Source: an uncultured Clostridium sp. (GTDB lineage Bacteria > Bacillota > Clostridia > TANB77 > CAG-508). From it: 64,000 bases of DNA. Shown here piece by piece: positions 7,204-26,767 of this stretch (the stretch's first letter is position 1; each line of letters begins with the position of its first letter). The stretch spans positions 20,184 through 84,183 of the forward strand of contig CAMEJH010000001.1 of the NCBI GenBank assembly GCA_945919455.1, read 5' to 3'. A model generated the notes under the pieces. It worked only from the letters and a program-made list of their open reading frames with translations, did not search any database and was not told the origin of the DNA. The position numbers were made by a program, and so were the translations under genes.

Positions 7204-7286
7204 TAAAAAACTAATCTAAGTATTGAAAAAAGTAAAATAATAATATAAAATAAGGAAAATAATAAAAATACAAAGAGGACTATTTT

Positions 7287-8387: not shown

Positions 8388-8401
8388 AAAAGAAGGAAAA
8401 A

Positions 8402-9181: not shown

Positions 9182-9189
9182 GTAACAAT

Positions 9190-10254
9190 ATGAATAACAA
9201 AAAGAAAGTAATAATGTTTTGTGAATATTTTGGAAATGGTGGAATTGAAAAAATTTTATCTTATATTAATGAAAATTTAAATAAAGAAAAGTACAGCACT
9301 CAGATTATATGTACTATAAAGAATACACAAATATATGAAGAAGATATAAAAAGCATTTCTAAATTTAAAATTCGCAATCCAATTTATAGGTTTATTAAAA
9401 CAATATTGAATATAAAAAAAGTGACTGCAGATGCAGATATTGTACATTTTAATATACATAGTCCAATTGGTTTACTATATGCTTTTTTAATAAGAAATAC
9501 TAAAGCCAAAATAATCATTCATGCACATAACTCAAATTTTGATAATGATTTTCTTAAGATAAAAACTTTTATAGCTTTTATAATAAAAAAATTATTTCTT
9601 AGTTCTAAATATACATATATAGCATGCTCAGAAAGTGCAGCATTATTTTGCTTTAATAAAAAAACAAAATATACTATTTTGAAGAATGAGATTGATTGCG
9701 AAAAATTTATTTATGATGAGGGAAAGAGAAAAGAATTACGCAAAGAATATAAAATAGGTGCTAATGAAATAATTATAGGAAACATTGGAAGAATAGAGAA
9801 ACAAAAAAATCATGAGTTTTTAATAGAAGTATTTGATGCATTTTTAAAAAAACAAAGTAATGCTAAATTATTCTTAGTTGGAGCGGGAAAGCAAGAAAAA
9901 AAGATTAGAAATTTAATAAATAAAAAGGAAATAAATGATAAGGTAGTTATAATGAATTTCTATAGTGATATAAAAGATTTATATCAGATATTTGATTTTT
10001 ATCTAGTAACGTCTAGATATGAAGGATATGGAATGACTGTTTATGAGGCACTAAATTCATCATTACTTTGCTTTGTATCTGATAAAATTACACAAAATTT
10101 TTCTACCAATGAAAATATTATTCCAATATCATTAAACAAAACACCAGAAGAATGGGCAAGTAAAATTGAAGAATATATAGGATATAAAAGAGAAAAAAAG
10201 CTTAATCTAAGCTCAAATAATTATATTAAAGAATTAGAAAAAATATATAATTGA
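9190..10254 (+). CDS. Glycosyltransferase, GT4-like (GT-B fold)
   Basis: TSRYEGYGMTVYEALNSSLLCFVSD (E-x7-E) and the IGNIGRIEKQKNHEFLI linker. Confidence 0.75.
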   Translation: MNNKKKVIMFCEYFGNGGIEKILSYINENLNKEKYSTQIICTIKNTQIYEEDIKSISKFKIRNPIYRFIKTILNIKKVTADADIVHFNIHSPIGLLYAFLIRNTKAKIIIHAHNSNFDNDFLKIKTFIAFIIKKLFLSSKYTYIACSESAALFCFNKKTKYTILKNEIDCEKFIYDEGKRKELRKEYKIGANEIIIGNIGRIEKQKNHEFLIEVFDAFLKKQSNAKLFLVGAGKQEKKIRNLINKKEINDKVVIMNFYSDIKDLYQIFDFYLVTSRYEGYGMTVYEALNSSLLCFVSDKITQNFSTNENIIPISLNKTPEEWASKIEEYIGYKREKKLNLSSNNYIKELEKIYN

Positions 10255-10261
10255 GGTTTAT

Positions 10262-11228
10262 ATGAGTGAGGTTAGTATAATTGTACCAATTTATAATAGC
10301 GAAAAATATATTTCTGCATGTATAGAATCAATATTACATCAGACTTATAAAGATTTTGAACTATTATTAATAGATGATGGAAGTACTGATAATACAAATA
10401 ATATTATAAAAAAATATAAAGATTCAAGAATAAAAATATATAGGCAAGAGAATAAAGGAACTGGTGCTGCAAGAAATCTTGGAATGAAACATGCAAATGG
10501 TAATTATCTTACTTTTGTAGATAGTGATGATGCAATAGAACAAAGATATTTAGAAATTATGTTAAATGCATGTAAAAATAATAATGCAGATATTGTTTCA
10601 TGTGTATATATGAAAAATGATAAAGAACCAAAAATAAAAATACTAAATAAAACTGAGGCTTTTAGGTATTTAATTAGTTTACCAGAGAAGATACCAATGT
10701 CAGTGGTTCGGCAAAATATTTAAAAACAATATAATAAATGGTATTAGATTTGATGAAAATAATAGATTTGAGGATATTGAAGTAGCAACCAAAGTTTTTC
10801 TAAGTGCTAATAAAGTAATATATATAAATGAAGAATTGTATAAATGTTCTTATAGAAAAAATAGTAGATCAAATTTTTACGAGAGTGATGATAGAATAAG
10901 AGCATGCTACAAATCTTTAAAATTAATAACAAAACAATATGACCTTTTTCTAGATGATTATATTACATACACATTATTTAACTCTATTGCTATAGTTAAT
11001 ATGATGATTTTAAATGATAATTACAATATAAAACTTTTACAAAAAGTACAAAAAATAGTAAAAAAACATATAAAAAGTGTAAAAAAGTCACAATATGGGT
11101 TGTCAAAAAAAATGCAAATATATCTATTTTATTATAATTTTAGTTTATATAAAGTTTTATATAAAGCTTTAAAAATAAAAGGAGGTAAAAATATTGGACA
11201 AGATTTCAGTAATTGTACCAATATATAA
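10262..11228 (+). pseudogene. Frameshifted glycosyltransferase family 2 gene
   Basis: ORF 10262-10723 encodes a normal GT2 N-terminus (VSIIVPIYNSEKYI..LLIDDGSTDNT..FVDSDD) but stops at ..IPMSVVRQNI*. The +1 frame is open from ~10710 and continues in GT2 fashion (GKIFKNNIINGIRFDENNRFEDIEVATKVF..) to 11228. A single-nt indel near 10705-10710 would join them. Confidence 0.6.
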
Positions 11229-12138
11229 TTCAGAAAAATATTTGAGAGTATGTATAGAGTCAATAATTAATCAAACTTACACAAATTTTGAAGTTTTATT
11301 AATTAATGATGGAAGTACAGACAACTCATCAAATATTTGTAAAGATTTCTCTAATAGATATAGAAATGTAAAAACTTTTAATTTAACTCATCAAGGAGTT
11401 GCAAATGCAAGAAATTTTGGCATTAGTAAAGCTAGTGGCCAATACATATGCTTTATTGACTCTGATGACATGATATCTCCTAATTTTTTTAACGATCTTA
11501 TTAATATGATTACAATATATAACTCTGATATAGCAGAAACAGGATTTAGATATATGAACGAAAAACATAAGGAAAAGAAAAGAAAAATAGAGATATATGA
11601 TTCTATAAAAATGGCAAAGCGATTATATAGTAAAAATGGGGTAAGGACAGCAATTATAACAAATAAATTGTTTAACATAAAATTGTTTAAGAATATTAAA
11701 TTTGAAAACAGAGAAAATGAAGATGAATTTATAATACATAAATTGATATTTGCAACAAATAAACCAATTGTTATAGATAATCAAAAATTATATATCTATC
11801 GAATACATAAAAGTAGCAGGCAAACTAATTTTAATGCTGAAAAATTAAGAGTTCTAGAAGTTTTTGAACAAAGAGAAAAATATTTTTCAATAGATGAAGA
11901 ACTTATGATTAAAAATAAAATTGGTAAACTAGATTTAATTTTATACTTATCATATATTTGTAATCAAAATGGAAGAATAAAAGAACAAGAAGAATTGAAA
12001 AAACAGTTTACAAATGAATATAGGAATTTAAATATAAAACCGGACTTTAGGAGAAGAATAAAATATAAAATTTTTATGAAAAATCCACAATTAATTTTAA
12101 ATATTATAGCTTTAAGGAATAGGAAAAAATATGAATAA
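11194..12138 (+). CDS. Glycosyltransferase family 2
   Basis: TTG start 8 nt after GGAGG. ISVIVPIYNSEKYL..LLINDGSTDNS..FIDSDD. Paralog of the genes at 10262 and 12131. Confidence 0.75.
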   Translation: MDKISVIVPIYNSEKYLRVCIESIINQTYTNFEVLLINDGSTDNSSNICKDFSNRYRNVKTFNLTHQGVANARNFGISKASGQYICFIDSDDMISPNFFNDLINMITIYNSDIAETGFRYMNEKHKEKKRKIEIYDSIKMAKRLYSKNGVRTAIITNKLFNIKLFKNIKFENRENEDEFIIHKLIFATNKPIVIDNQKLYIYRIHKSSRQTNFNAEKLRVLEVFEQREKYFSIDEELMIKNKIGKLDLILYLSYICNQNGRIKEQEELKKQFTNEYRNLNIKPDFRRRIKYKIFMKNPQLILNIIALRNRKKYE

Positions 12139-13024
12139 CAAAAATATTTCTATAATTGTAACAGCATATAATTCGGAAAATTATATCGAGAGATGTATAA
12201 AAAGTTTAATTAACCAAACATATAAAAACATTGAAATAATAGTAGTTAACGATGGAAGTACAGACAAAACAATTGATATTTTAAACAAATATAAAAATAG
12301 TATTAAAATTTATGAAAAAGCTAATGAGGGAGTTGCAAATGCTCGTAATTTTGGCATAAAGAAATGTCAAACTGAATATTTTATGTTTGTTGATTCAGAT
12401 GATTATTTAGAAGAGAATGCTGTTAAAATATTATATACTAAATTAGTAGAAACTAATAGTGATATAGTAATGGGAAGTACCAATAATAGTTTAAAAGAAA
12501 TGCTAGTTCTAGAAGAAAATAAGTTTGATTATTTATTTAATAATAAAATAAAATATTTTATGGTACCATGGAATAAATTGTATAAAAAAGAGATATTTTC
12601 AGATTTAAAATATCCAAATTTAACACTAGCAGAAGATGAATATTTAATTCATCATATTTTAGATAAAATAATAAAAATGGTAATAATACCAGAAAAAACT
12701 TACAATTACTTTCATAATCCTGATGGTTTAACTACCACAAAACTACAAAATTATAAAGATATTATATGTGCATTTAAAGATAGATATAATTTCTTTAAAA
12801 ATACAAAATATGAAAAAATTGCTTATAAACAATATATGAATTATTATATAAATATTTTCTGCCAACTTAAAAGAAAAAATATTACACAAAAAGAACTTGT
12901 TTATGAATTTAGAAAAAACATAGTATTGCCAGTAAGCTTTAAATATTTGCTATTTGCAAATGCTGACGAAATATATTATAAATTATTTGCTTTGAGGAGT
13001 AAAATATGGAAAAAATACCAATAG
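12131..13024 (+). CDS. Glycosyltransferase family 2
   Basis: ISIIVTAYNSENYI..VVNDGSTDKT..FVDSDD. Confidence 0.75.
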   Translation: MNNKNISIIVTAYNSENYIERCIKSLINQTYKNIEIIVVNDGSTDKTIDILNKYKNSIKIYEKANEGVANARNFGIKKCQTEYFMFVDSDDYLEENAVKILYTKLVETNSDIVMGSTNNSLKEMLVLEENKFDYLFNNKIKYFMVPWNKLYKKEIFSDLKYPNLTLAEDEYLIHHILDKIIKMVIIPEKTYNYFHNPDGLTTTKLQNYKDIICAFKDRYNFFKNTKYEKIAYKQYMNYYINIFCQLKRKNITQKELVYEFRKNIVLPVSFKYLLFANADEIYYKLFALRSKIWKKYQ

Positions 13025-14028
13025 TATTTTCAACAAATGATAAATTTGCTGATTTATGTAGTGTAGCGATAAGCTCTATTATTCAAAATGGTAATATAAA
13101 TAATTTGTATGATATTTATATTTTTTATACAAGGCTTTCTAATGAAAATATAAAGAGATTAGAGCAAAATACTAAGCAAAATATAAGTATAAAATGCATA
13201 AATATATCAGAATTTATAGACTTTAAAAATTTATATGAGATAGAAAATTATACATATGAAATATATTATAGATATTATATTCCATTAATTTTAAAATATG
13301 AAAAAGTTATATATTTAGATTCTGACATAATAGTTGTAGATGATATAGCAAAACTATATAATGAAGATATTGGAGATGCACCAATCGGAGTAGTAAGAGA
13401 TTTTACACATTATATAGATCATTCAAATTTTGATTTTAATTCTGGAATAATGCTAATTAATACTAAAAAGTTCGAAGAACTAAAAATTAGAGATAAATGC
13501 ATTGAATTAATAAAAAAGAACAATTTTAGATTTCCAGATCAAAATGCGTTAAACATAGCATGTAAAGATAATGCGTATCTGTTAGATCCAAAATATAATT
13601 ACCAAGTAAGCTTAGCATATTATCATAGGTTTAAAAAAGAGATTAGAAAGAATAAATTTAAACAAAAATTTGAAGAAGAACCAATAATAATACATTTTTC
13701 ATATGTTACGAAACCAACTAATAATATATACTCTAAATATAATAAAGATTTTTGGAAATATGCTAAATATACTCCATATTATAATCAATTAGTTGATAAA
13801 TTTTTGGCAGATCCATATAAAGTGTTAAGGGAATCACCAATAGAAGACATATACATTGATATGGCGGAAGAAGGAAAAGTAGGATTAAGAAAAATATTTG
13901 AAACATTATTATACCAATTAAAATATTGGATTTTGTATAAAATAAGAAGAAAGGACAAATGTAAAAATGAAAAAGATAAAAGAATTACTAAAAAAAATAG
14001 TACCAGCGACTTATCAAAAAACAAATGA
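13006..14028 (+). CDS. Glycosyltransferase family 8 (LgtC/GspA-like, retaining)
   Basis: IPIVFSTNDKFADLCSVAISSII, YLDSDIIVVDDI (DxD) and FNSGIMLIN. Lys-rich C-terminal tail. Confidence 0.7.
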   Translation: MEKIPIVFSTNDKFADLCSVAISSIIQNGNINNLYDIYIFYTRLSNENIKRLEQNTKQNISIKCINISEFIDFKNLYEIENYTYEIYYRYYIPLILKYEKVIYLDSDIIVVDDIAKLYNEDIGDAPIGVVRDFTHYIDHSNFDFNSGIMLINTKKFEELKIRDKCIELIKKNNFRFPDQNALNIACKDNAYLLDPKYNYQVSLAYYHRFKKEIRKNKFKQKFEEEPIIIHFSYVTKPTNNIYSKYNKDFWKYAKYTPYYNQLVDKFLADPYKVLRESPIEDIYIDMAEEGKVGLRKIFETLLYQLKYWILYKIRRKDKCKNEKDKRITKKNSTSDLSKNK

Positions 14029-14869
14029 TTTATACAAACTTATGTTAAAAGAAATAATTGATATAAAGAGTAGAGGAACAGTAAAATCAATTTTAGATTA
14101 TGAAGTACAATTAGTGGAACATTGTAATTTAAATTGTAAAGGATGTTCACATTTTTCTCCATTATGCAAAGAAGAGTTTTTAGATGTAAATGAATATGAA
14201 AGAGATTGTAAAAGACTATCAGAACTTTTTGAAGGAGAAGCAAATTTTATCAGACTCATGGGAGGAGAACCTCTATTACATCCTAAAATAGCAGAGTTCC
14301 TAAAAATAACTAGAAATAATTTTCCAACAGCTACTATTGATTTGGATACAAATGGTATTTTAGTACTATCAATGAAAAAAAACTTCTGGAAAGAAATGCA
14401 CGACAACAATATAAATTTAACAATTACTAAATATCCAATAAAATTAGACTATGATAAAATAAAAGAAAAATGTAATAAAGAGAAAGTTAAATTTAGATTT
14501 TTTGACGAACAACCAGTTCGCCAATTTACACATTTGCCATTAGATTTAGAAGGAAGAGGACAAATAGAATGTAACTTTTTTAGTTGTTATTTGGCTAATT
14601 CGTGTCATACATTAAAACATGGAAAAATGTATACTTGTTCAACAGTACCACATGTAAATCATTTTAATGAATACTATAATTGTAATCTGAACATTAGCAA
14701 AAAAGATTCAATAGATATATATAAAGCTACTAGTGGAGATGAAATATTGGAATTTTTAGCAAAACCAATACCATTCTGCAGATATTGTAATGTAAATGCT
14801 AGAGAACACGGATTTGATTGGGAAATATCCAAAAAAGATATTTTAGAATGGTCATTAAGGAGTAAATAA
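13967..14869 (+). CDS. Radical SAM enzyme with C-terminal Cys cluster (SPASM/twitch-like)
   Basis: CNLNCKGCSHF (CxxxCxxC) and MGGEPLLHP. C-terminal cysteines CNFFSCYLANSC..C..FCRYCN. The start overlaps the GT8 gene by 62 nt; ATG 14042 is an alternative. Confidence 0.75.
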   Translation: MKKIKELLKKIVPATYQKTNDLYKLMLKEIIDIKSRGTVKSILDYEVQLVEHCNLNCKGCSHFSPLCKEEFLDVNEYERDCKRLSELFEGEANFIRLMGGEPLLHPKIAEFLKITRNNFPTATIDLDTNGILVLSMKKNFWKEMHDNNINLTITKYPIKLDYDKIKEKCNKEKVKFRFFDEQPVRQFTHLPLDLEGRGQIECNFFSCYLANSCHTLKHGKMYTCSTVPHVNHFNEYYNCNLNISKKDSIDIYKATSGDEILEFLAKPIPFCRYCNVNAREHGFDWEISKKDILEWSLRSK

Positions 14870-14871
14870 AC

Positions 14872-15720
14872 ATGAAATTGACTATTGGAATATGTACATA
14901 TAATAGAAAAAATATAATTGAGTATACATCAAAATCTTTAAAAGAAATTAATAATATAGAATGTGCAAATGTAAAAATATATGATGATAGTAGCGTAGAA
15001 TATGATATTAATTATTTAAAAAAATTATATCCAATGGCAAAAAAAATCAATAGAACGCAAGAAAATTTGGGAGCAGATTATAATACACAAAAAATGTATG
15101 AAGACTTTCTTAAAAGTGAAGATGAATATTTATTTAATGCTGATTCTGATTTGATTTTTAATAAAGATATTCTTACAATAATTGAAAAAAACATTAATAT
15201 TTTAAAGAAAGCAAATAAACCAGTTGTATTTTCAGTGTTTAATACATCAAAACATAAGACTATAAAAGATTTTGATGAAAATCTTTGTATAAAACATTCT
15301 GTTGGAGCAGCAGGAGTAGTATTTAGTAAAGAAGTAATAAAGATGTTTGTAAATAAAATTCCTCAAAAGTATAGTGTCCAAATACCATCAATAGACCATT
15401 GTTTTTGCGATATTTTGAGAAAAAATAAATATGATATATTTTGTACAAAAAAAAGCTATGTACAACATATTGGATTAATAGGACAAAATTCATCAGGAAT
15501 AAATGTTGACTGGGGAAAAGATTTTACAAGTGATACTTTGACTAATGCTAATGCAATAATAGAAGTGCTACAAGGATATTTAATAAATGATATTCCAGCC
15601 AATATATGTAATTTATGCGAACAAGGCAAAGTGGGAAGCAAAACAATAGTAAAAGCATTAGGCTTATGTGTAAAATTTAAAATAAAGAATTTTTGTGAAA
15701 AATTGAAAGGGAAAAAATGA
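14872..15720 (+). CDS. GT-A-fold glycosyltransferase-like protein (paralog A)
   Basis: LTIGICTYNRKNII..IYDDSS..NADSDL (DxD). Clearly paralogous along its length to 17377-18210 (shared CTKKSYVQHIG and NANAI blocks). Confidence 0.65.
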   Translation: MKLTIGICTYNRKNIIEYTSKSLKEINNIECANVKIYDDSSVEYDINYLKKLYPMAKKINRTQENLGADYNTQKMYEDFLKSEDEYLFNADSDLIFNKDILTIIEKNINILKKANKPVVFSVFNTSKHKTIKDFDENLCIKHSVGAAGVVFSKEVIKMFVNKIPQKYSVQIPSIDHCFCDILRKNKYDIFCTKKSYVQHIGLIGQNSSGINVDWGKDFTSDTLTNANAIIEVLQGYLINDIPANICNLCEQGKVGSKTIVKALGLCVKFKIKNFCEKLKGKK

Positions 15721-17372
15721 TTGTTGATTTTATAAAATTAATTGCAAAATATAAACCAATATTTAAAGAAAATAAAAAATATATAGTATTGCTTTTAATA
15801 TTAGCTGGTGTTACAGTAGGTATTTCAATATTGACTCCTGCATTAACTGCTAAGATTATTAGTTATATGGTACAAGGGAAATATACAGCTATTATAATAA
15901 TTCTTTTTTTACTAGGAATAGTACAAACTTTAAATTTAACTTCAAACATTTTAAATTCTAAGGTGTTTTTTAAATTTAGAAAAAATTTTATTTTTAGATT
16001 AAAAAAGCAATTATCAATAAGTATATTAAACTTGGACATGAATACTTTATCAGATAATAGAAAAGGAAAATTCATACAAAGGATAAATAATGACCCATCG
16101 ATAGTTGCTAGTTGTTTAGCAGACATAAAAAAGTACATAATTTTATTATTTACTAATGTTGGAGTAATAATATATACAGTATATTTAAGTCCGATACTAG
16201 GATTAATATATTTAATTTCATCTGTATTAATATTATATATAAGAGGAATAGGGGTAAAAAAGAAAAAAATAATACAAAATTCTTATTATAATGAGCAAGA
16301 TAAAAATACAAGTTTATGGAGTGAAATTTTTAATGGAATAAGAGATATAAAAACAGCAAATGCAAAAGAACAATTTGAAAATAAAACGGCTAAAGCGTTT
16401 GAAAATATAGAAGATTTACAATTTAAGGCTGATTTTTATTTTGATTTATGTGTAAAGGCAACAATTGTTATTGAATGGGTTGCAAATGCTTTAATAGTAT
16501 TAATGAGTGCATATCTTATGAGTAAAGGATATATTGTATTAGAAACTTTTTTAGTGGTATTTATGTATAGAAAAAATATATTTTCATTTTCAGATTGTTT
16601 TACAGATATGCTAGATAGAATGATAAATTTTAATTTATCTAGTGAAAGAATTTTTGAGGTAATTGATATCGCAAATATTCGATTTAATGGAGAAGAATCA
16701 ATAAAAGAATGTGATGGAAATATTGAATTTAAAAATGTATCATTTTCGTATAATGATAAATCTAATTTAATATTAGATAATTGTAATTTGAAAATAAAGA
16801 CTAATGAGAGTACAGCAATTATTGGAAGAAGCGGTGCGGGTAAAACAACAATACTAAATCTTATTTTAAAAATGTATAATGTTACTCAAGGTGAGATCTT
16901 ACTGGACGGAAAAAATATAAATGAAATAAGTGAACAATATATAAGAAAAAATATTTCAATAATTTCTCAAAACTATTATTTGTTTGATATGAGCATAAAA
17001 GAAAACTTAATGCTAGTAAAACCAGACCTTACAGAAAATGAAATGCAAGATGTTTGCCAAAAAGTAGGACTTGATGAATTTATTTTAAGTCTTCCTGATA
17101 AATATGATACCAATATTGGAGAAGGTGGATGCTTCTTAAGTGGAGGGCAGAGGCAAAGACTAGTAATAGCAAGAACTTTATTATTGAATACAAAGATTAT
17201 TTTATTTGATGAAGTAACAAGTTATTTGGATAACGAGTCAAAGCAAGCAGTAAAACAATTAATAGATACTTTAAAGAATAATCATACAGTTGTTTTAGTA
17301 ACACATGAAGATTTTTTAAGAGAAAATTGTGATCAAAAATATTATTTAAAAGATGGAAAAGTGGAGAGATAA
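15717..17372 (+). CDS. ABC exporter, fused TMD-NBD half-transporter (MsbA/PglK-type architecture)
   Basis: Hydrophobic N-terminal half. Walker A GRSGAGKTT, signature LSGGQRQRLVIAR, Walker B IILFDE. ATGA overlap with the upstream gene. No C39 peptidase domain. Confidence 0.85.
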   Translation: MIVDFIKLIAKYKPIFKENKKYIVLLLILAGVTVGISILTPALTAKIISYMVQGKYTAIIIILFLLGIVQTLNLTSNILNSKVFFKFRKNFIFRLKKQLSISILNLDMNTLSDNRKGKFIQRINNDPSIVASCLADIKKYIILLFTNVGVIIYTVYLSPILGLIYLISSVLILYIRGIGVKKKKIIQNSYYNEQDKNTSLWSEIFNGIRDIKTANAKEQFENKTAKAFENIEDLQFKADFYFDLCVKATIVIEWVANALIVLMSAYLMSKGYIVLETFLVVFMYRKNIFSFSDCFTDMLDRMINFNLSSERIFEVIDIANIRFNGEESIKECDGNIEFKNVSFSYNDKSNLILDNCNLKIKTNESTAIIGRSGAGKTTILNLILKMYNVTQGEILLDGKNINEISEQYIRKNISIISQNYYLFDMSIKENLMLVKPDLTENEMQDVCQKVGLDEFILSLPDKYDTNIGEGGCFLSGGQRQRLVIARTLLLNTKIILFDEVTSYLDNESKQAVKQLIDTLKNNHTVVLVTHEDFLRENCDQKYYLKDGKVER

Positions 17373-17376
17373 AATA

Positions 17377-18210
17377 ATGAAATTATATATTGGAGTAACT
17401 ACATATAATAGAAAAGATATTATACAATATAATGCAAAATCTTTATTACAGGTGGATGAAATCGAAAACTGTGAAATACATGTGTTTGATGATTGCAGTA
17501 ATGAGTATAATATGAAATTTTTAAAAAAAATTTATAAAACTGATAAAGTTATTTGTAACAAGGAAAACTTAGGGGCAGATGCTAATGCCAAGAAAATGTT
17601 TATGGACTTTTTAAAAAGTGATTGTGATTATTTATTTTGTGCAGACTCTGATTTGATTTATACTAAAGATGTTTTAAGAGTAATAGAAAAAAGTATATAC
17701 AAAATAAAAAAAGCAAATAAACCAGTTATATTTTCGGTTTTTAGTGAGAAGCATCATACTATATTTGAAGAATTTGATTCAGACCTTTGCAAAAAGAAAT
17801 TTATTGGAGGTGCTGGAACGGTAATGGATAAAGAAATTATAAAGCTGTTTATAGAAAATGTTCCTTTAAAGTATAATAAGGAAATAGAAGGAATAGACTG
17901 TTATTATTGTAGTGTTTTGAATTCTTTAAATTATGATATGTTTTGTACAAAAAAGAGCTATGTTCAACATATTGGGGTTTTTGGACAAGGAGCAAACTTA
18001 GTAGATATTGAATGGGGAATTGATTTTAAAATAGATAGTATAGTAAATGCAAATGCTATTTATTATATTTGTGAAAAATATTATAAAATTGATGAAGAGA
18101 AAATTAAAAGTATGGCATTAAATCTTGCTAAAGTAGATAAGATAGGAGTTAGATTATCAATAAAAATGTTATATTATTCAATAATTTCAAGATTCAAAAG
18201 AAAAAATTGA
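17377..18210 (+). CDS. GT-A-fold glycosyltransferase-like protein (paralog B)
   Basis: ATG 17377 lies 8 nt after GGAGAG; the track's upstream extension overlaps the ABC gene. LYIGVTTYNRKDII..VFDDCS..CADSDL. Confidence 0.65.
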   Translation: MKLYIGVTTYNRKDIIQYNAKSLLQVDEIENCEIHVFDDCSNEYNMKFLKKIYKTDKVICNKENLGADANAKKMFMDFLKSDCDYLFCADSDLIYTKDVLRVIEKSIYKIKKANKPVIFSVFSEKHHTIFEEFDSDLCKKKFIGGAGTVMDKEIIKLFIENVPLKYNKEIEGIDCYYCSVLNSLNYDMFCTKKSYVQHIGVFGQGANLVDIEWGIDFKIDSIVNANAIYYICEKYYKIDEEKIKSMALNLAKVDKIGVRLSIKMLYYSIISRFKRKN

Positions 18211-18245
18211 AAGAAATTTATTTTTGCTAAAATCTTTATAAAGTA

Positions 18246-18274
18246 TTGTAAAAAGTAAAAATATGTGGTATATA
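18246..18274 (+). promoter_or_regulatory. Candidate promoter for the prepilin-like gene
   Basis: TTGTAA (18246-18251), 17 nt spacer, TATATA (18269-18274), with a TG extended -10 (tgtggTATATA). Confidence 0.4.
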
Positions 18275-18310
18275 ATATATATAAAATTCAAAAGAAGAAA
18301 GGGGAAAAAT

Positions 18311-19777
18311 ATGAAAGATAAAAGAAGTGTTAATGTAAGAGGTATAACACTAATTGCATTAGTTGTAACAATTGTAGTATTGCTAATTTTAGCTGCAACT
18401 TCTATAAGTATGTTATCGGGAAACAATGGAATAATAACACAGGCTAAGAATGCTAAAGAAAAAACCGAAGAAGAAGGTGAAAATGAACAAAATCTTTTAG
18501 ACAAGACTGGAAATAGTATAGATAATTATGTTTCTGGTGCTTATGATGGGTGGAATTCTGCAAAAGGAGTAAATCAGCCTAGTCTGTCTTCAAGAATGGT
18601 TGCAGTATACTGGACTGAAGATGGAGAGGAAATTTATTCAAAAATTGCTGAGGATGGAAATCCAGATCCTTCAGGAGAAGTAAATCCAAATTTCGACTGG
18701 AATTTATGGTATGATTATGTTGCGCAAACAGGTACAACAGATGGAACTAGTAAATGGGCTAATGCAATATCACTTGATGGCAATGGAACTTGTTATTGTG
18801 TTTGGATTCCAAGATTTGCATATAAAATAACAAGTGGATTAAATTCAAGTAGCACAGGAAAAGTAGAAATTAAGTTCTTAAAAGGAACTTCAAATGAAGA
18901 TAAAGATGGAAATAAAATAAGTAAAGAGTACCCAGCAACAAATGGTAATGCAATGAGTGATTTTGTAATACATCCATCATTTGTAAATGGAACTGCAAAT
19001 AATTTTTCTAATGGTGAATGGGATTCTGAAATTGGAGGATATTGGGTTGCTAAGTATAAGATGACAACAGATATACAAGGAGAAGATATTTTTCAAGGAA
19101 GTATACCAGGGGAGAACAGAAGGATAAATTATATGGAATATCAATATGCATTAGCTAATTATTATAATAAATCATGTAATAGTCATTTGATAAAAAATAG
19201 TGAATGGGGAGCTATTGCATACTTAACTCAATCTAATTATGGAAGAAATGGAAATAAAGTAAGTGCAAACAATACTTATTATAGTGGAGGTTCCCGAAAT
19301 GCAACTGCAACTACTAATGTCTCTCAAAGTAGTACAGGCAATCCATATGGTATATTTGATTTAGTTGGCGGAGGAGAGTTTGTGGCTGGATATGCTGGAT
19401 TTTTAAATAGAATGACATCAGGACTTGATTTTGCTTATGCTGAATTGCCTAAAATAACTACAGGAACATATTTTAGGTGGAGAGATGATGTATTAAGAAA
19501 TAAGATGGTGAATACAAAATTTATAACTGTATATCCTTGTGACAGAACGAATACTGAAACTGTATATAATTATAATATTTATGCAAATACAAAGATGTTT
19601 GGAGATGCTATATTAGAAACAACAACGGTTAATAACAGTGATTTAAATTCTTGGGAGAATATATCAAATATATATTTTGATTTTAAAAAATGTTATATGA
19701 TTAGAGGAGAAAATGGTATATTTTCTTATGAGGCTATTACTAATGGAGGATATGGCTATCGTATAGTACTTATGTAA
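18311..19777 (+). CDS. Prepilin-type (class III signal) protein with large FGE-sulfatase/C-type-lectin-like C-terminal domain
   Basis: ATG 18311 follows AAAGGGGA. MKDKRSVNVRG-ITLIALVVTIVVLLILAATSI gives a short basic leader, then Gly, then a ~20-residue hydrophobic helix, with Ala rather than Glu at +5. Downstream motifs are FVIHPSF, GYWVAKYKMT, NSEWGAIAYL and NPYGIFDLVGGGEFVAG. Confidence 0.65.
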   Translation: MKDKRSVNVRGITLIALVVTIVVLLILAATSISMLSGNNGIITQAKNAKEKTEEEGENEQNLLDKTGNSIDNYVSGAYDGWNSAKGVNQPSLSSRMVAVYWTEDGEEIYSKIAEDGNPDPSGEVNPNFDWNLWYDYVAQTGTTDGTSKWANAISLDGNGTCYCVWIPRFAYKITSGLNSSSTGKVEIKFLKGTSNEDKDGNKISKEYPATNGNAMSDFVIHPSFVNGTANNFSNGEWDSEIGGYWVAKYKMTTDIQGEDIFQGSIPGENRRINYMEYQYALANYYNKSCNSHLIKNSEWGAIAYLTQSNYGRNGNKVSANNTYYSGGSRNATATTNVSQSSTGNPYGIFDLVGGGEFVAGYAGFLNRMTSGLDFAYAELPKITTGTYFRWRDDVLRNKMVNTKFITVYPCDRTNTETVYNYNIYANTKMFGDAILETTTVNNSDLNSWENISNIYFDFKKCYMIRGENGIFSYEAITNGGYGYRIVLM

Positions 19778-19800
19778 AATTAAATAATATTAATAACACT

Positions 19801-19835
19801 AAGAGACATAATTGCTAAAAGCAAATATGTCTCTT
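19801..19835 (+). terminator. Intercistronic hairpin (possible attenuator/partial terminator)
   Basis: aagagacata, 15 nt, tatgtctctt: perfect 10-bp stem with only a weak T tract after it. Confidence 0.4.
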
Positions 19836-19862
19836 TACTATAAAAATGGATGGACTAAAATT

Positions 19863-21269
19863 ATGAAAGAAAAAATAAAAAATTCAATTAATAATATAAC
19901 GGACATTATATTGTGTAGAGCATCAAAAGAAACGTTTTATAAATATGAAAAACAATTATTATTTTTATCGTTATTTATATTAATGTTTTATTATATGGTA
20001 ATATTTAGATTTAATGATTTAGGATTAGTTGCTACATTTTCTTGGCTATTATATCCATTTTTTATAGCGCTATATATACCATTAATTCATAGTGCATTTT
20101 ACCATATAAAAAATAAAGAATTTAAAATAAAATTAATAGACATAGCATTTGTAATTTATATAATATTTTGTATAATTGCAACAATATTTTCAGAAACACC
20201 ATACAATTCAATATTTGGAAATGGAATTAGAAATGAAGGTATATTCACAATTATATTTTATTTCTTAGTATATTTGTTAGGAAGAAACATTGTAAACAAA
20301 GATAACATACTAGAATTAATAAACTTTATTTTTATTTTTGGAATAGTACAGGTGATTGCTGGATTATTTCAATCATATTATACATGGAATTCTTATTTTG
20401 ATGAAATGGCCTATGGATATGCAAGTAATCCAAATATGTTTGGATTATTGATGGGAATGCTACTTACAATAGCAGTTGGATTATATTTTAATGAAAATGA
20501 ACATATTAACAAATATAAATATTTTTATCTAGTTTGTATTATATTATTTTATACTGGTTTAGTATTAGCAGAATCAGCTGGACCATTCTTTTCATTTATA
20601 GGAATGCTAGGAATAATGTTTATTTACTATATAATAAAAAAGGTAAAAGTAAAGAAAATGCTATTAATTTTGCTAATTTTTATAGTACTATTTCCAATAA
20701 TCCAATTTACCAATAGGGCTGCTAATGAATACTATTTAAGAGATGCCGAATATAAGACATATATAACAAACAACAACACAGATTATTCAAAATTATATAC
20801 AGATGTTATTACTATAATAAATAAAATAATTCCAAAGAAAAATACAGAAACAGAAGAAAATACTAGTAATACTCAAAACGATGATACAAAAAGAACAATA
20901 GATAATGGAAGAATTGCTGAATGGAAGCTTGTTATAAAAGAAGTAAAGAAAAATTGGAAAAATGGAGTAGGATTAGATTGCTTAAATATTTATTATAATG
21001 GAAGAGGATATTGGGAGATTCTAGATAAAGCACATAACCAATATTTAGATATACTAGTTAGTATAGGAGTGTTTGGATGTATTACATATTTAACAATGAT
21101 GATAATTGTAACATTAAAAGGTATAAAAAATAAAAATGCCATATCAAAAACAATATTTTTTGGCTTTTTATATTATTCAATTGCAATATTTGTTAACATA
21201 AGTACACCATTTGTAGCAATATATTATTATATAATAGTGGGATTAATAATTGGTCTTTGTGAAAAATGA
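19863..21269 (+). CDS. O-antigen ligase family (Wzy_C domain) polytopic membrane protein
   Basis: Many hydrophobic helices. Extracytoplasmic loop motif NGRIAEWKLV..NGVGLD..DKAHNQYLDILVSIGVFG, typical of the WaaL/PglL/PilO/Wzy family. The track start 19812 lies inside the upstream hairpin, so ATG 19863 is preferred. Confidence 0.7.
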   Translation: MKEKIKNSINNITDIILCRASKETFYKYEKQLLFLSLFILMFYYMVIFRFNDLGLVATFSWLLYPFFIALYIPLIHSAFYHIKNKEFKIKLIDIAFVIYIIFCIIATIFSETPYNSIFGNGIRNEGIFTIIFYFLVYLLGRNIVNKDNILELINFIFIFGIVQVIAGLFQSYYTWNSYFDEMAYGYASNPNMFGLLMGMLLTIAVGLYFNENEHINKYKYFYLVCIILFYTGLVLAESAGPFFSFIGMLGIMFIYYIIKKVKVKKMLLILLIFIVLFPIIQFTNRAANEYYLRDAEYKTYITNNNTDYSKLYTDVITIINKIIPKKNTETEENTSNTQNDDTKRTIDNGRIAEWKLVIKEVKKNWKNGVGLDCLNIYYNGRGYWEILDKAHNQYLDILVSIGVFGCITYLTMMIIVTLKGIKNKNAISKTIFFGFLYYSIAIFVNISTPFVAIYYYIIVGLIIGLCEK

Positions 21270-21283
21270 AAATAAATTCAAAA

Positions 21284-21312
21284 AAATAGCAAGTAAAGCC
21301 TTGCTATTTTTT
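21284..21312 (+). terminator. Rho-independent terminator after the Wzy_C gene
   Basis: aaatagcaag-taaagc-cttgctattt followed by TTT. Confidence 0.7.
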
Positions 21313-21363
21313 GATTTGCATAGTAAAATATACTCAGAAAAAAAGTCGAAGGGAGAGACTATT

Positions 21364-23670
21364 TTGAAAAAGGAAAATAAGGAACTAGAACTATCAAAAA
21401 AATTGGAATATATAGGATTAAATTTAGATGAAATACCAGAAACACTAAAATTAGTAGAAGACTTACAATTTAAGCCAAATGTAGGACTTGATGAAAAAAA
21501 ATACAGACAATATAGATTTGTGTCTCCTAAAGAAATAGAAATATTATTATCACCAACAAATAGATTAGATGATGTAAAAGAAAAATACTCAAAAGCAAGC
21601 CCATTAGTATCTTATTTAATCCCAAACAATGAGGAAAATGCTGAAAGATGTGAAATATTTAAAAATATGCTAAGAGAAGTTAAAATTGAAGAAATTGAAA
21701 AAATAGAGCAAGATCAACAGGCATTGAATAAAAAGATTCCATTTAAAGTAAGATATCCAGGAAACTATTTATGGCAGATATATTATTCTTCAGCAAGTAA
21801 CAAATATTTTATGATTGTACCAACTGAAGATAAAGATTACTCAACATTTTTTTATGTTCTAAAGAAACAAATAGAAAAGAAAAAAGCAGGAAAAGTATTT
21901 GTACCAATATGTAATGCAGACTATTCAAAAGAATTATTGAATAAAACAGAAATACAAAGCTTAGAGAACTATTTATGGCTATTTACAAAAGATTGGCCTT
22001 CAATATATGAAGTATATGATAAAAATGAAAAAGTAAGCTTACAAATAGTTGGAACAACAGAAGTATATGGAAAAATAAAATCAGAGTATAAAGTAAAACT
22101 TTCAAACAAAATTGAAGCAACAAAATTTTTTAAATTAGTAAAAGCACTATTTATATTGCAATCAGAATTACCAAATTATTATAAATTTGATACACAAATA
22201 GATAAACAAGGAAGTCTAGAATTCTACTATGAAGGACAATTGCTACAATATGATGATTTAAGTGATTGGGTAAATGATCAATACAAAAAATTATTAGAAA
22301 TTCAAAAAAAATCTACAAAAGAAAATTCAGAATTAAAAGAAAAATTAAATAAATTGAAAAATCAATCAGAAGAATTAGAAATGGAATATTTGTCTAAAGA
22401 AAAACAAATATCAACATTTTTAGAATGCAAAAAAACCTTTTTTGGCAAAGTAAAATACTTTTTCAAATATAGTGGAAAAAAATCAAAAAGAAAAGAAGAA
22501 AAGCCAAAAGAAGTTAAGCAAGAAAAAGTTAAAATTGAAAAAGAAGAAGAAATAGACGAAACATTAAAAAAACAATACACCTTAGATGAATTACTAGAAA
22601 AAGGGAAAAAAGCTAGTGAAAAAGAAACAGAATTAAAAAACACTAAAATGGATATAAATGCTTTAAAATTAAAAAATGTAAATCTAGTAAAGAAAATAGA
22701 AAATGCAACAGCATTTATAGATGAGATAGATAGTCATAAAAAGAGCATATTTGAATTCTGGAAATATAGTAATAAAGATGAAGTACAAGCTCTAGAAGAA
22801 GGCGAAGAAGAACCTGTAAATGTAAAGCCACATTCAAAAGTATTTGACTATGAAGAAGATTTTGACGAATTTGGAACAACAATGGACAAAATACAAAGAG
22901 ATATTTTGTCAAAAGAAGAATTAGATAGCATATACTTAACAACAACAAATCAAATAGAAATAATGAATAAATTAAAAACAAATACCACAGAGCCAAAAGA
23001 ATTAGACAAATGGCTAAAACAAATAAAAACAGATCTAAAAAATGAAAAAGACATGACAGAAGAAGAGGTTGTAGATATATTCGGAGGACTATCAGAAGAT
23101 ACTAGAAAAGTAAAAAAATTGGCTAATAAATCTCACAGAGAACAACCAAAAAATAAATATTCAATATTAAAAATATCAAAGTCTATAAAAACAGTAGATT
23201 ATAAAGTTGCGCTGAACAATGCTATAAGAACTATAGATAAAGCAATAAACAAAAATCAATTAGGACAGGAAATTTCAGCATATGAATGGACTGAGGAGGA
23301 AAATATAGATCCTAATAAGATTAATATATTTAATCTAGATCCTGAAAAGGAAATAGAAGAAGCATTAAAAGCAACAGAGAATACAAAAATTAATTTATAT
23401 AAAATGAATTTAAATAAAGGAATTAATGCAATAGCATTTTCAAATTGTGTTTATTTTGATAATCAGAACAAAACATTGCCTTTAGGAATGGATAAAGATA
23501 CTAGAATATTAACAAAAATATTAGATACAGATATACAACTAAATAGTAAAAAAACTGTAAGAGTTGGAAGATTAGAAGATGAAAAAGACGAGGCTTCTAA
23601 ATTGATTATAAAAACAATAAATATATTAGAATATACTGTAAAACCAATAGAAGAGAATACAGAAAAATAA
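21364..23670 (+). CDS. Large orphan cytoplasmic protein with central Lys/Glu-rich coiled-coil region (~769 aa)
   Basis: TTG 21364 lies 6 nt after GGGAGAG. The ORF-track extension back to 21250 runs through the upstream terminator. No TM or signal peptide. The central part (..ELKEKLNKLKNQSEELEMEYLSKEKQ..KRKEEKPKEVKQEKVKIEKEEE..) looks coiled-coil. No family recognised. Its stop is 11 nt before era. Confidence 0.6.
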   Translation: MKKENKELELSKKLEYIGLNLDEIPETLKLVEDLQFKPNVGLDEKKYRQYRFVSPKEIEILLSPTNRLDDVKEKYSKASPLVSYLIPNNEENAERCEIFKNMLREVKIEEIEKIEQDQQALNKKIPFKVRYPGNYLWQIYYSSASNKYFMIVPTEDKDYSTFFYVLKKQIEKKKAGKVFVPICNADYSKELLNKTEIQSLENYLWLFTKDWPSIYEVYDKNEKVSLQIVGTTEVYGKIKSEYKVKLSNKIEATKFFKLVKALFILQSELPNYYKFDTQIDKQGSLEFYYEGQLLQYDDLSDWVNDQYKKLLEIQKKSTKENSELKEKLNKLKNQSEELEMEYLSKEKQISTFLECKKTFFGKVKYFFKYSGKKSKRKEEKPKEVKQEKVKIEKEEEIDETLKKQYTLDELLEKGKKASEKETELKNTKMDINALKLKNVNLVKKIENATAFIDEIDSHKKSIFEFWKYSNKDEVQALEEGEEEPVNVKPHSKVFDYEEDFDEFGTTMDKIQRDILSKEELDSIYLTTTNQIEIMNKLKTNTTEPKELDKWLKQIKTDLKNEKDMTEEEVVDIFGGLSEDTRKVKKLANKSHREQPKNKYSILKISKSIKTVDYKVALNNAIRTIDKAINKNQLGQEISAYEWTEEENIDPNKINIFNLDPEKEIEEALKATENTKINLYKMNLNKGINAIAFSNCVYFDNQNKTLPLGMDKDTRILTKILDTDIQLNSKKTVRVGRLEDEKDEASKLIIKTINILEYTVKPIEENTEK

Positions 23671-23681
23671 ATGGAGGAAAT

Positions 23682-26766: not shown

Positions 26767-26767
26767 A

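Follow-up and report, generated by a model that had tools for sequence, protein, structure and literature searches.

A glycosyltransferase-linked radical SAM enzyme and an ABC exporter in a probable surface-glycan operon of a Clostridia-like bacterium

A radical SAM enzyme, two related glycosyltransferases and a fused ABC exporter are encoded one after another within a polysaccharide locus of the window, the stretch of 64,000 nucleotides analysed here, which raises the question of what such a set of genes could make and export. The original prediction, made from the letters alone, offered two answers: a PglK-like flippase of lipid-linked oligosaccharides, with a radical SAM sugar-modifying step, feeding the adjacent Wzy_C protein, or a glycosylated-peptide pathway. 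Our study leans towards the first, and we consider it somewhat probable that these genes serve a lipid-linked surface glycan that is tailored by the radical SAM enzyme, exported by the ABC protein and handed to the Wzy_C protein.

The coupled genes and their operon

The four open reading frames, all on the forward strand, encode the radical SAM enzyme (13967-14869, 300 aa), a first GT-A glycosyltransferase, GT-A1 (14872-15720, 282 aa), a fused TMD-NBD ABC exporter (15717-17372, 551 aa) and a second GT-A protein, GT-A2 (17377-18210, 277 aa); the frames and their Pfam domain matches bear out the module as it was first described. Their tight coupling also stood. A 2-nt gap separates the radical SAM and GT-A1 genes (AAGGAG lies 8 nt before the GT-A1 ATG), an ATGA overlap joins GT-A1 to the exporter, and the gap between the exporter and GT-A2 is 4 nt, with GGAGAG before the ATG; the ribosome-binding sites of the coupled genes are located within the preceding genes. 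The start of the run needed correction: a GT8 gene (13006-14028, forward strand; PF01501, E 2e-37), from a family of retaining glycosyltransferases, overlaps the radical SAM gene by 62 nt at its 3' end, so that the coupled run begins at least one gene earlier than had been proposed. The DNA is very AT-rich and comes from an uncultured gut Clostridia-like bacterium.

These four genes are probably the late part of one cell-surface glycan operon of about 14 kb, extending roughly from 7287 to 21269, where Pfam matches place the module in a run of eight other glycosyltransferases plus the Wzy_C protein. The upstream run (7287-13024), also on the forward strand, consists of GT4 (7287-8387), GT2 (8402-9181), GT4 (9190-10254), a frameshifted GT2 (10262 to about 11190) and two further GT2 genes (11194-12138 and 12131-13024). 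It is colinear with the operons of related metagenomic loci L091, L007 and L001 at 59-74% identity, the GT2 at 12131 having no counterpart in L091, and, given its frameshift, the pathway of this window may have changed or be degenerating. Downstream of GT-A2 lie a gene for a protein of about 488-504 aa (18311-19777, forward strand) and the gene for the polytopic Wzy_C-family membrane protein (19863-21269, forward strand; PF04932, 52.6 bits), which has 12 TM-like segments and, starting at position 19887, is 55% identical to its L091 ortholog. A search of the 64-kb window for an initiating phosphoglycosyl transferase found none; the L090 operon begins with one of the Bac_transf type, which implies a polyprenyl-phosphate carrier.

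The conserved unit is larger than the four genes: a set of GT8, radical SAM, GT-A, ABC and Wzy_C genes is found again in seven or more related metagenomic lineages. The order GT8-radical SAM-GT-A-ABC is present in L001, L007/8, L009, L010, L090 and L091, with identities of 62-76% for the radical SAM enzyme, 43-64% for the exporter and 43-69% for the GT-A protein. GT8 stands upstream of the radical SAM gene in L001, L007-L010, L090, L091 and L097; in the last of these the genes are rearranged (GT8, a 555-aa gene, radical SAM, ABC, Wzy_C) and the set is still together. A Wzy-like protein follows the exporter in L007/8, L010, L090, L091 and L097, and no such gene follows it in L001.

The member of the original module that does not belong to this unit is GT-A2. 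Both GT-A proteins match PF00535 (24.6 bits for GT-A1 and 39.9 for GT-A2; cutoff 23.3), and they are paralogous as proposed, being 47% identical (E 9e-88) and reciprocal best matches among the 19 glycosyltransferases of the window. Downstream of the radical SAM enzyme, GT-A1 is the partner that is conserved, with orthologs in L001, L007, L009, L010, L090 and L091 (43-69% identical); the operons there have a single GT-A gene, and the L091 protein is 69% identical to GT-A1 and 45% to GT-A2. GT-A2 is instead 90% identical to an orphan protein (P0146, L093-L095) whose gene, in related genomes, has addB on one side and a Cu-oxidase_4 gene on the other, and GT-A2 is thus a window-specific addition. 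The same holds for the gene after it, and the GT-ABC-GT bracket is therefore not a conserved architecture. Its reported recurrence around Wzm/Wzt is real in that the GT2 genes at 25684-26766 and 30127-31116 encode reciprocal best matches, but it is a loose one, with only 32% identity and a 415-aa gene without assigned function also enclosed beside Wzm/Wzt.

In the structural comparison of the GT-A proteins (AlphaFold2 pLDDT of 92.3 for GT-A1), the best Foldseek matches are TarP, TarS and SpsA (E about 2e-9, TM about 0.5) and KfiA. TarP and TarS are wall-teichoic-acid GlcNAc transferases, and with them and SpsA the proteins of the window share the GT-A fold and the DxD motif; the DD, DSD (DxD) and QH.G motifs of GT-A1 are invariant in its alignment (A3). 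Unlike these enzymes, to which they are 17-20% identical, the two proteins carry two C-terminal helices and form a small, separate subfamily within GT2 (84 matches in a word-indexed search). TarP is phage-borne, and GT-A2 resembles it in having a 90%-identical orphan copy outside any glycan locus.

The radical SAM enzyme and its chemistry

HMM classification places the radical SAM enzyme, the single unusual component of the operon, in PF04055 (41.8 bits; cutoff 29.5), and no SPASM domain was found in the Pfam and NCBIfam scans. Seven cysteines are invariant in an alignment of 36 sequences (A1): the three of the radical SAM cluster, C53-x3-C57-x2-C60 (CX3CX2C), and a C-terminal tetrad, C207/C224/C271/C274, whose members are candidate ligands of an auxiliary cluster. 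The cysteines listed in the original prediction were partly wrong, because C202 (the C of 'CNFF') occurs in just 2 of the 36 sequences and C224, present in all, had been missed; C213 is kept in 30. The model of the enzyme (AlphaFold2 pLDDT 92.9) has as its best Foldseek match SpeY (7wzv; E 1.8e-15, TM 0.70 over 280 columns), followed by BtrN (4m7t; TM 0.50-0.60 over about 255 columns), and the same two are found by a profile search of the PDB (E 3.7e-20 and 3.9e-7) and, for SpeY, by phmmer (E 1.5e-13). Of the SPASM or twitch clusters suggested earlier, the tetrad and these matches support the twitch type, and we assign the enzyme as a twitch-type rather than a SPASM protein.

SpeY, the twitch sugar-alcohol dehydrogenase of spectinomycin biosynthesis (7wzv/7wzx/7x0b), is thus the closest known enzyme in both sequence and structure. 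The two are similar in size (about 300-320 aa), in the CX3CX2C motif and in a single C-terminal auxiliary-cluster domain, and C207 and C224 align with the first two auxiliary cysteines of SpeY in the profile alignment. However, they are only 22% identical, and a fold likeness at this level is not enough to establish the reaction. The substrate of SpeY, in the antibiotic pathway of an actinomycete, is a free pseudo-disaccharide, whereas the family of the window enzyme is found in anaerobes, in or fused to surface-glycan machinery, and has an amphipathic N-terminal helix of 25-40 aa. BtrN, a twitch 2-deoxy-scyllo-inosamine dehydrogenase whose single auxiliary [4Fe-4S] cluster is ligated entirely by Cys, matches less well than SpeY; it has only about 250 aa, and its substrate is an aminocyclitol that is yet to be glycosylated.

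The family, which comprises about 1,000 clusters at 50% identity (a search at E<=1e-30 gave 996 representatives), is spread over anaerobes of many phyla, across which it is fused to or flanked by polysaccharide enzymes; Lachnospiraceae bacterium KH1T2 and Raoultibacter timonensis are candidates for cultured carriers. Of 34 long members examined, 22 are fusions with an N-terminal glycosyltransferase domain (15 GT2, five GT8, one GT17 and one DUF6716). The GT8 fusions keep the order of the overlapping genes in the window, whose GT8 protein aligns over about 300 aa with the N-terminal domains of fusions P0219 and P0211 (E 1e-26 and 3e-27). The neighbours of distant members include GT2 (14 of 127) and GT1 (6 of 127) proteins, methyltransferases, TupA ATP-grasp enzymes and SDR epimerases, and a search of limited sensitivity found a glycosyltransferase-like frame within 6 kb at 28 of 79 distant loci, or 19 of the 38 with full flanks. 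Some members adjoin housekeeping genes.

As to the reaction, we tentatively suggest, with rather less than even confidence, that the enzyme oxidises a secondary sugar alcohol to the ketone and passes the electrons to the fully ligated auxiliary cluster, the best guess for the target being a hydroxyl of a sugar in the growing glycan; epimerisation, deoxygenation and action on an NDP-sugar donor are the alternatives. A fusion of glycosyltransferase and radical SAM domains suits the channelling of a donor as well as the tailoring of a product, and the enzyme might act on a nucleotide-sugar and make an unusual donor for the adjacent or fused glycosyltransferase. The next-best matches include viperins and BlsE, which act on nucleotides or nucleosides, and some members stand outside obvious glycan loci. 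Nevertheless, the viperin matches span the radical SAM core only (about 155 columns, TM 0.38) and the best two full-length structural matches, SpeY and BtrN, use non-nucleotide pseudo-saccharides, which makes this alternative somewhat unlikely.

Export and transfer at the outer face

PF04932 is the only family matched by the product of 19863-21269, and the NCBIfam repeat-unit polymerase model scores it at 20.5 against a cutoff of 40. The Wzy_C family includes pilin and S-layer O-oligosaccharyltransferases, and in Geobacillus ABC export feeds one of these, WsaB. The protein could accordingly be an O-oligosaccharyltransferase (compare PglL, PilO and WsaB) that glycosylates a surface protein, possibly an S-layer protein or the product of the adjacent gene at 18311-19777, directly upstream of Wzy_C in the window. 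The latter product has a single TM-like segment, an N-terminal pilin-like hydrophobic helix, and an extracellular part that is weakly FGE-like (5vf4, E 0.044); it matches no Pfam or NCBIfam family. Yet its gene is missing from every orthologous operon examined, and its membership of the pathway is uncertain. In addition, no acceptor protein was identified, and the fast divergence of the Wzy_C proteins, their 12 TM-like segments and their one large late loop suit polymerases and ligases equally. We regard protein O-glycosylation as unlikely.

The exporter combines PF00664 and PF00005 within one chain and is thus a fused TMD-NBD half-transporter, predicted to have the ABCB/MsbA-type exporter fold; the Pfam and NCBIfam scans found no C39 peptidase domain in it. 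Every NCBIfam model falls under its cutoff, including MsbA (265 of 602) and PglK (154 of 1000), and the protein does not qualify as a member of the PglK family. Sequence cannot separate it from multidrug or lipid exporters: PglK is outscored by the models for MsbA, TAP and type I secretion, and the PDB search returned only generic ABCB matches, the best being ABCB1, TM287/288, MsbA and bacteriocin exporters. It might be a pump that handles drugs or lipids generically and only happens to be encoded in the operon, the glycan leaving through Wzx or Wzm/Wzt; both were located in the window as predicted (46872-48329 for the Wzx-type flippase; 26744-28869 for Wzm/Wzt, with a Wzt_C domain). Against this, the ATGA and 4-nt junctions bind the exporter to glycosyltransferase genes, Wzx and Wzm/Wzt lie past era and recO in separate loci that have glycosyltransferase genes of their own, and eight independent contexts, one shuffled and one without the radical SAM gene, place orthologs of the exporter (41-68% identity) beside genes for radical SAM, glycosyltransferase or Wzy_C proteins. 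The orthologous clade (at least 40% identity) sits in glycan loci beside Wzy_C: the two genes are direct neighbours in L007/8, L091 and L097, and L096 (41% identical) has both in one GT4/Wzy_C/LicD locus, where the lack of a radical SAM gene indicates that the ABC-Wzy_C pairing is independent of that enzyme. A generic pump is, on this evidence, improbable.

Such a pairing has precedents. PglK of Campylobacter jejuni and Wzk of Helicobacter pylori are fused TMD-NBD half-transporters of glycan loci that pass the finished polyprenyl-linked glycan on to a transferase of the outer face, which in H. pylori is WaaL, a Wzy_C-family ligase. For the exporter subfamily of the window the partner in glycan loci is likewise Wzy_C, also where the radical SAM enzyme is missing. 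Unlike either system, that of the window would include a radical SAM step, and it has a Gram-positive-type, Clostridia-like host, and its exporter scores lower with the PglK model than with that of MsbA.

The other option of the original prediction, a glycocin- or sactipeptide-like pathway with the radical SAM enzyme as maturase, GT-A as peptide glycosyltransferase and ABC as peptide exporter, has some superficial likeness to sublancin/glycocin and sactipeptide clusters in its radical SAM, GT2 and ABC exporter genes, and the peptide-maturing enzymes anSME, SuiB, SkfB and CteB are among the weaker Foldseek matches, but it is effectively refuted: between 13000 and 24500 no free small frame exists for a precursor, which the original prediction had not found either, and none fits the gaps of 2-52 nt; the Pfam and NCBIfam scans found no RRE domain, besides lacking SPASM and C39; 300 aa are too few for an added peptide-recognition domain; GT-A resembles TarP, TarS and SpsA; and polysaccharide enzymes accompany both the radical SAM family across phyla and the module itself, surrounded by eight other glycosyltransferases and Wzy_C.

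A proposed pathway

The lipid-linked-glycan reading is supported by the co-retention of the radical SAM, ABC, GT8 and Wzy_C genes, by SpeY and BtrN as nearest structures and by the frequent glycosyltransferase fusions; it stands by context, the PglK likeness of the exporter falling short of the model's cutoff. In the pathway that we propose, soluble GT4, GT2 and GT8 enzymes would assemble an oligosaccharide on a lipid carrier at the cytoplasmic face, and the twitch enzyme, together with the upstream GT8 and the downstream GT-A, would chemically tailor one sugar. The ABCB-type half-transporter, as a homodimer, would carry the lipid-linked product across the membrane, and Wzy_C would polymerise the glycan or ligate it to an acceptor at the outer face, GT-A2 being perhaps a recently acquired decorating enzyme. 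The carrier, what the exporter moves and in which direction, the order of the steps and the radical SAM chemistry are inferred, and the whole reading rests on metagenomic sequence. For the wider family, these results suggest that the radical SAM enzyme works together with sugar-adding enzymes and belongs to an unnamed, unstudied family linked to glycosyltransferases, of which the protein of the window would be the founding example.

Organisation and conservation of the operon

The window is very AT-rich (G+C about 21-32%), and its + strand carries nearly all of the genes. Four tightly coupled open reading frames were identified on this strand, as the original prediction had claimed: the radical SAM gene (13967-14869, 300 aa), the gene of a first glycosyltransferase, GT-A (14872-15720, 282 aa), the ABC exporter gene (15717-17372, 551 aa), and that of a second glycosyltransferase, GT-A2 (17377-18210, 277 aa). 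The radical SAM and GT-A genes are separated by a 2-nt gap, with AAGGAG within the 3' end of the former; GT-A and the exporter share an ATGA overlap; and a 4-nt gap, preceded by GGAGAG, separates the exporter from GT-A2. These junctions show translational coupling. Immediately upstream, a GT8 glycosyltransferase gene (13006-14028, + strand) overlaps the radical SAM gene by 62 nt. The upstream start of the latter is real because its first 25 residues are kept in orthologs, which rules out an alternative start at 14042. In the Pfam analysis, the four genes encode a Radical_SAM domain, two weak-to-moderate Glycos_transf_2 domains, and ABC_membrane plus ABC_tran in a single chain, and they are flanked by GT8 and Wzy_C genes. 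Sites found in a promoter and terminator scan of 6000-25800 were no commoner than in shuffled sequence, so that the scan carries no information on the operon ends.

The same operon is carried by related metagenomic contigs. The order GT4-GT2-GT4-GT2-GT2-GT8-rSAM-GT-A-ABC-Wzy_C is found in the locus L091, whose radical SAM protein (rSAM) is 76% identical to that of the window, and likewise in L007 and L008 (68%). A shorter GT8-rSAM-GT-A-ABC arrangement occurs in L009 and L010 (66-68%), followed in L010 by an 815-aa, 12-TM Wzy-like ORF, and in L001 (62%), where a LysR gene comes next and a Wzy-like gene is absent. The locus L090 opens with a Bac_transf phosphoglycosyl transferase gene and closes with GT8-rSAM-GT-A-ABC and an 805-aa, 11-TM protein. 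In L097 (exporter 56% identical), the genes are shuffled (GT2-GT8-555 aa-rSAM-ABC-Wzy_C-GT2-GT4-GT4) and GT-A is missing. Across these loci the persistent set is GT8, radical SAM and exporter, usually also with Wzy_C; the proposed conservation of the four genes as a unit holds for this set and does not extend to GT-A2, which, together with a GT2 gene at 12131 and a 504-aa gene, is additional in the window with respect to L091. Orthology of Wzy_C was seen with the closest operon only: BLAST searches of the Wzy_C, 504-aa and 806-aa proteins of the window against 88 radical SAM loci returned no orthologs except short matches to the N-terminal helix of the 504-aa protein.

Some neighbouring genes deserve mention on their own. 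The 504-aa ORF (18263-19777, likely start 18311) has a pilin-like N-terminal hydrophobic segment (RGITLIALVVTIVVLLILA) that lacks the usual Glu5, and a weak motif resembling FGE/sulfatase-modifying factors (5vf4, E 0.044); L010 has two helices like its N-terminal one upstream of the module. The gene between Wzy_C and era (21250-23670) encodes a soluble, Lys/Glu-rich protein of 806 aa that lacks a TM segment and matches no Pfam or NCBIfam family; the 805-aa membrane protein found in the corresponding place of L090 is not a homolog of it. A GT2 gene at 10262-11190 is broken by a frameshift near 10690-10708, its 304-aa ortholog in L091 matching frame 2 up to 10708 and frame 3 from 10683; it is either a pseudogene or the result of a sequencing or assembly error within an A/T run.

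A twitch-type radical SAM family associated with glycosyltransferases

The radical SAM protein scores 41.8 bits against PF04055 (cutoff 29.5), carries the CX3CX2C motif, which ligates the SAM-binding [4Fe-4S] cluster, and has a partial TIM-barrel core that superposes on viperin, MoaA and anSME; it is thus a member of the superfamily. When 36 diverse homologs were aligned, C53, C57 and C60 were seen to be present in all 36, as are C207, C224, C271 and C274; C213 is kept in 30 and C202 in two. SPASM domains have a C-terminal 7-Cys motif and two auxiliary clusters, as in anSME and the sactisynthases, and twitch domains have a shortened C-terminal domain with a single auxiliary [4Fe-4S] cluster. 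The original prediction had allowed for either. Only four C-terminal Cys are invariant here, versus seven in the SPASM motif; PF13186 gave no match at E<=0.01, and all SPASM NCBIfam models scored far under their cutoffs, with matches restricted to residues ~46-150. The twitch assignment stands, with the four invariant Cys and a full-length fold match to SpeY and BtrN placing the protein in the class of BtrN, SpeY and MoaA: its Cys pattern is that of a twitch domain, predicted to hold one fully Cys-ligated auxiliary cluster. No curated family claims the protein in the Pfam and NCBIfam classification, where its top NCBIfam score was to MoaA (43 bits versus a cutoff of 284).

In a Foldseek search of the PDB with the AlphaFold model (pLDDT 92.9), SpeY was well ahead of all other matches (E 1.8e-15, TM 0.70, 280 columns, 22% identity), and the next full-length match was BtrN (TM 0.5-0.6); viperins, MoaA, anSME and peptide maturases align to the core only. 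The family profile also matches SpeY (E 3.7e-20), with auxiliary Cys 1 and 2 aligned. The name SpeY for 7wzv was taken from the Foldseek description, and a literature search on 7WZV/7WZX/7X0B and SpeY gave nothing usable. Both enzymes use SAM to oxidise a secondary alcohol of a sugar or cyclitol by two electrons; the likeness to these carbohydrate dehydrogenases is one of fold and Cys pattern only, at 22% identity to SpeY. The N-terminal helix is amphipathic and Lys-rich, and might perhaps fit an enzyme acting at the membrane surface.

When 1.84 billion representatives were scanned exhaustively with HMMER, 4,728 proteins matched at E<=1e-3, of which 996 reached E<=1e-30. Clustered at 50% identity, the family forms ~1,000 clusters, and it occurs in anaerobes of many phyla; in one-genome-per-species data, relatives are encoded on at least 419 contig stretches. 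Among the best 80 of these stretches nearly all hosts are anaerobes (Bacteroidales, Clostridia, Treponema, Gastranaerophilales, Synergistaceae, Smithella, Elusimicrobiota, and Coriobacteriia). Cultured bacteria with a homolog include Lachnospiraceae bacterium KH1T2 and Raoultibacter timonensis. About 30 of the 150 top representatives exceed 550 aa, and a Pfam scan of 34 long members (457-978 aa) identified an N-terminal glycosyltransferase domain in 22 of them (GT2 in 15, GT8 in five, GT17 in one, and DUF6716 in one); the remainder have MptE-like, ABC_tran, C-methyltransferase or SPASM domains, or else two copies of the radical SAM domain. Two such fusions have a GT8 part to which the GT8 protein of the window aligns over ~300 residues (E 1e-26 and 3e-27), so the overlapping GT8 and radical SAM genes are a split form of the fused enzyme. 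This is the strongest evidence that the radical SAM protein would work with a glycosyltransferase.

Evidence from gene neighbourhoods points in the same direction but is weaker. The 127 immediate neighbours of distant members include GT2 (14), GT1 (6), extra radical SAM copies (6), methyltransferases (5), TupA ATP-grasp (4) and SDR epimerases (3), and a low-sensitivity search detected a glycosyltransferase-like ORF no more than 6 kb away in 28 of 79 loci, or 19 of the 38 with full flanks. A LOS/capsule-like locus in Campylobacteraceae, which includes a fused ABC transporter, contains one relative, and a Eubacterium glycan locus, which includes an ABC-2 transporter, contains another. The hypothesis that the whole family shares one fixed partner gene was dropped, since de novo clustering of neighbours yielded no single conserved partner except a GT2 cluster present in 21 of 83 loci. 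Tandem radical SAM paralogs are frequent (L012, L047, L070, L073, L078, L079, L081, and L088), and some chains hold two radical SAM domains (proteins listed with the tandem cases are P0205, P0206 and P0248), which suggests multi-step or multi-site modification. Our literature search on radical SAM enzymes in polysaccharide loci found no characterised example; the capsule cluster listing in the C. jejuni HS:19 paper includes uncharacterised radical SAM genes and nothing further on them.

The exporter, the glycosyltransferases and other glycan loci

The exporter is fused, as expected, with PF00664 (residues 24-286) and PF00005 (residues 353-502) in the same chain. It has the type IV (ABCB/MsbA-like) exporter fold, with a six-helix ABC_membrane domain at the N-terminus and the NBD at the C-terminus, and aligns over its full length to TM288, MsbA and the ABCB1 halves; a PDB search returned ABCB1, TM287/288, PCAT1 and MsbA. 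The proposed PglK-like flippase fails as an equivalog assignment (NF050066, 154.4 bits versus 1000), and the MsbA (265 versus 602), TAP and LssB models outscore PglK, every one below its cutoff; its glycan-locus context next to Wzy_C does hold. Judged by sequence, the protein is a generic ABCB/MsbA-type half-transporter, and its context tells more. The homolog list contains an orthologous clade down to ~40% identity and then falls to generic matches at 33-38%. Clade members adjoin radical SAM, glycosyltransferase or Wzy_C genes in all contexts examined, and one of them, 759 aa long and 41% identical, belongs to a GT4/Wzy_C/LicD locus without a radical SAM gene; the system therefore has the pair of exporter and Wzy_C as its backbone, with the radical SAM gene as an added module. 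The Wzy_C protein (PF04932, 52.6 bits versus a cutoff of 31.7), with 12 TM-like segments and a ~115-aa loop ahead of the final three, is a putative polymerase, ligase or O-oligosaccharyltransferase. The closest functional parallel is Wzk/WaaL of H. pylori, where the completed undecaprenyl-PP-glycan is flipped by Wzk, a PglK-like exporter, and then transferred by WaaL, a ligase of the Wzy_C family.

GT-A and GT-A2 score 24.6 and 39.9 bits against PF00535 (cutoff 23.3) and belong to the GT2/GT-A class, which is marked by a Rossmann-like fold and a DxD metal/nucleotide motif, with an invariant DD (D38-D39) and DxD (D91-S92-D93, DSD); both also keep an invariant QH.G motif. Their predicted paralogy is borne out by 47% identity and by their being reciprocal best matches among the 19 glycosyltransferases of the window. 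The subfamily is small (84 matches in a word-indexed search). Comparison of the GT-A model (pLDDT 92.3) with known folds matched it to TarP, TarS, SpsA, KfiA and heparosan synthase, which are ordinary polysaccharide GT-A enzymes. The second GT2 pair around Wzm/Wzt exists (32% identity, reciprocal best), while the bracket of glycosyltransferases around an exporter does not stand as an architecture: other genomes have, between addB and a pgeF-like Cu-oxidase_4 gene, an orphan gene with 90% identity to GT-A2, and the bracket is thus a local acquisition. In at least 21 contigs this ortholog stands alone in that position, away from any glycan locus, as in the loci L093-L095 (10001-10843; 7413-8255 in L094).

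The additional exporters of the original prediction were located in separate loci past era and recO: Wzm/Wzt, with Wzt_C, at 26744-28869, and a Wzx-type flippase at 46872-48329. Between era and recO, a 51-aa ORF (24753-24908) is YqzL-like (PF14006, 23.9 bits, slightly below cutoff), in the position known from the Bacillus era-yqzL-recO order. The ABC-2 exporter locus (25684-45712) encodes GT2, Wzm, Wzt, a 415-aa uncharacterised protein, a second GT2, a 585-aa methyltransferase-domain protein, double-GT2 proteins, two DUF2142 membrane proteins, DUF2304, acyltransferase_3 and more GT2 proteins. The Wzx-type locus (45914-52772) encodes GT2, Wzx (Polysacc_synt), GT4, Glf (UDP-galactopyranose mutase) and a DUF6077 membrane protein, which suggests a galactofuranose-containing polymer. 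Further downstream, a cell-wall run (52956-60019) includes a 618-aa GH25 muramidase, an 846-aa M14 carboxypeptidase-domain protein, an SDR epimerase/dehydratase and a 496-aa sulfatase-family protein, possibly LtaS-like.

Proposed chemistry and its significance

The module is a real, conserved glycan module and mostly ordinary; its distinctive part is the widespread uncharacterised twitch radical SAM family coupled to glycosyltransferases. We propose that the glycan would be assembled by glycosyltransferases on a polyprenyl-phosphate carrier, which is suggested because L090 has a Bac_transf gene; no initiating transferase was found within the window. GT8 would add a sugar, after which the radical SAM enzyme would abstract hydrogen at a sugar carbon and, on the model of SpeY and BtrN, pass an electron to the auxiliary cluster with formation of a ketone. 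The next sugar would come from GT-A, the lipid-linked product would be exported by a dimer of the ABC protein, and Wzy_C would polymerise or ligate it. Ketone formation is our preferred guess; the reaction could instead be an epimerisation or a deoxygenation, or the enzyme could act on the sugar-nucleotide donor. C213, which most but not all of the family keeps, would be a candidate hydrogen donor should some members be epimerases.

The other pathway put forward by the original prediction, maturation of a glycocin- or sactipeptide-like peptide (RiPP), is very improbable. Such systems are marked by an adjacent precursor peptide gene, by a domain for peptide recognition (RRE) or a SPASM domain and, in many cases, by an ABC exporter with a C39 peptidase. 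A small-ORF search of 13000-24500 found no free small ORF, the intergenic gaps there being only 2-52 nt; RRE, SPASM and C39 had no matches in the Pfam and NCBIfam scans; the exporter begins directly with its transmembrane domain, without a peptidase domain; and the radical SAM relatives have a glycan context across phyla. A role as maturase of the FGE-like 504-aa protein or of the product of the sulfatase-family gene at 58529 was rejected because the radical SAM gene stays with glycosyltransferase genes in operons that lack both.

Returning to glycan modification, we raise as a tentative suggestion, somewhat more doubtful than probable, that the family is an unrecognised class of radical glycan-tailoring enzymes, each a two-part catalyst with a fused or adjacent glycosyltransferase, that installs on lipid-linked surface glycans a modification so far undescribed for bacterial polysaccharides. 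The modification might be a keto sugar, a rare sugar formed by radical epimerisation, a deoxygenation, or a bridge of the C-C or ether type. If the enzyme is only a SpeY-like dehydrogenase giving a keto-sugar intermediate, the result is a useful annotation and no surprise. The family is a defined target for enzymology (~300 aa, a confident structural model and obvious partner enzymes), and the pairing of exporter and Wzy_C takes a Wzk/WaaL-style export route into Gram-positive-type bacteria. The surface glycans of gut anaerobes affect phage susceptibility, immune recognition and colonisation, and the usual way to predict their structures is from the genes for glycosyltransferases and sugar nucleotides. 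That a radical SAM family is widespread, and in many genomes fused to glycosyltransferases, implies oxygen-sensitive tailoring chemistry beyond this scheme of prediction, and, if the family is indeed a glycan-tailoring class, many of these glycans would bear a feature invisible to standard sugar-nucleotide pathway prediction.
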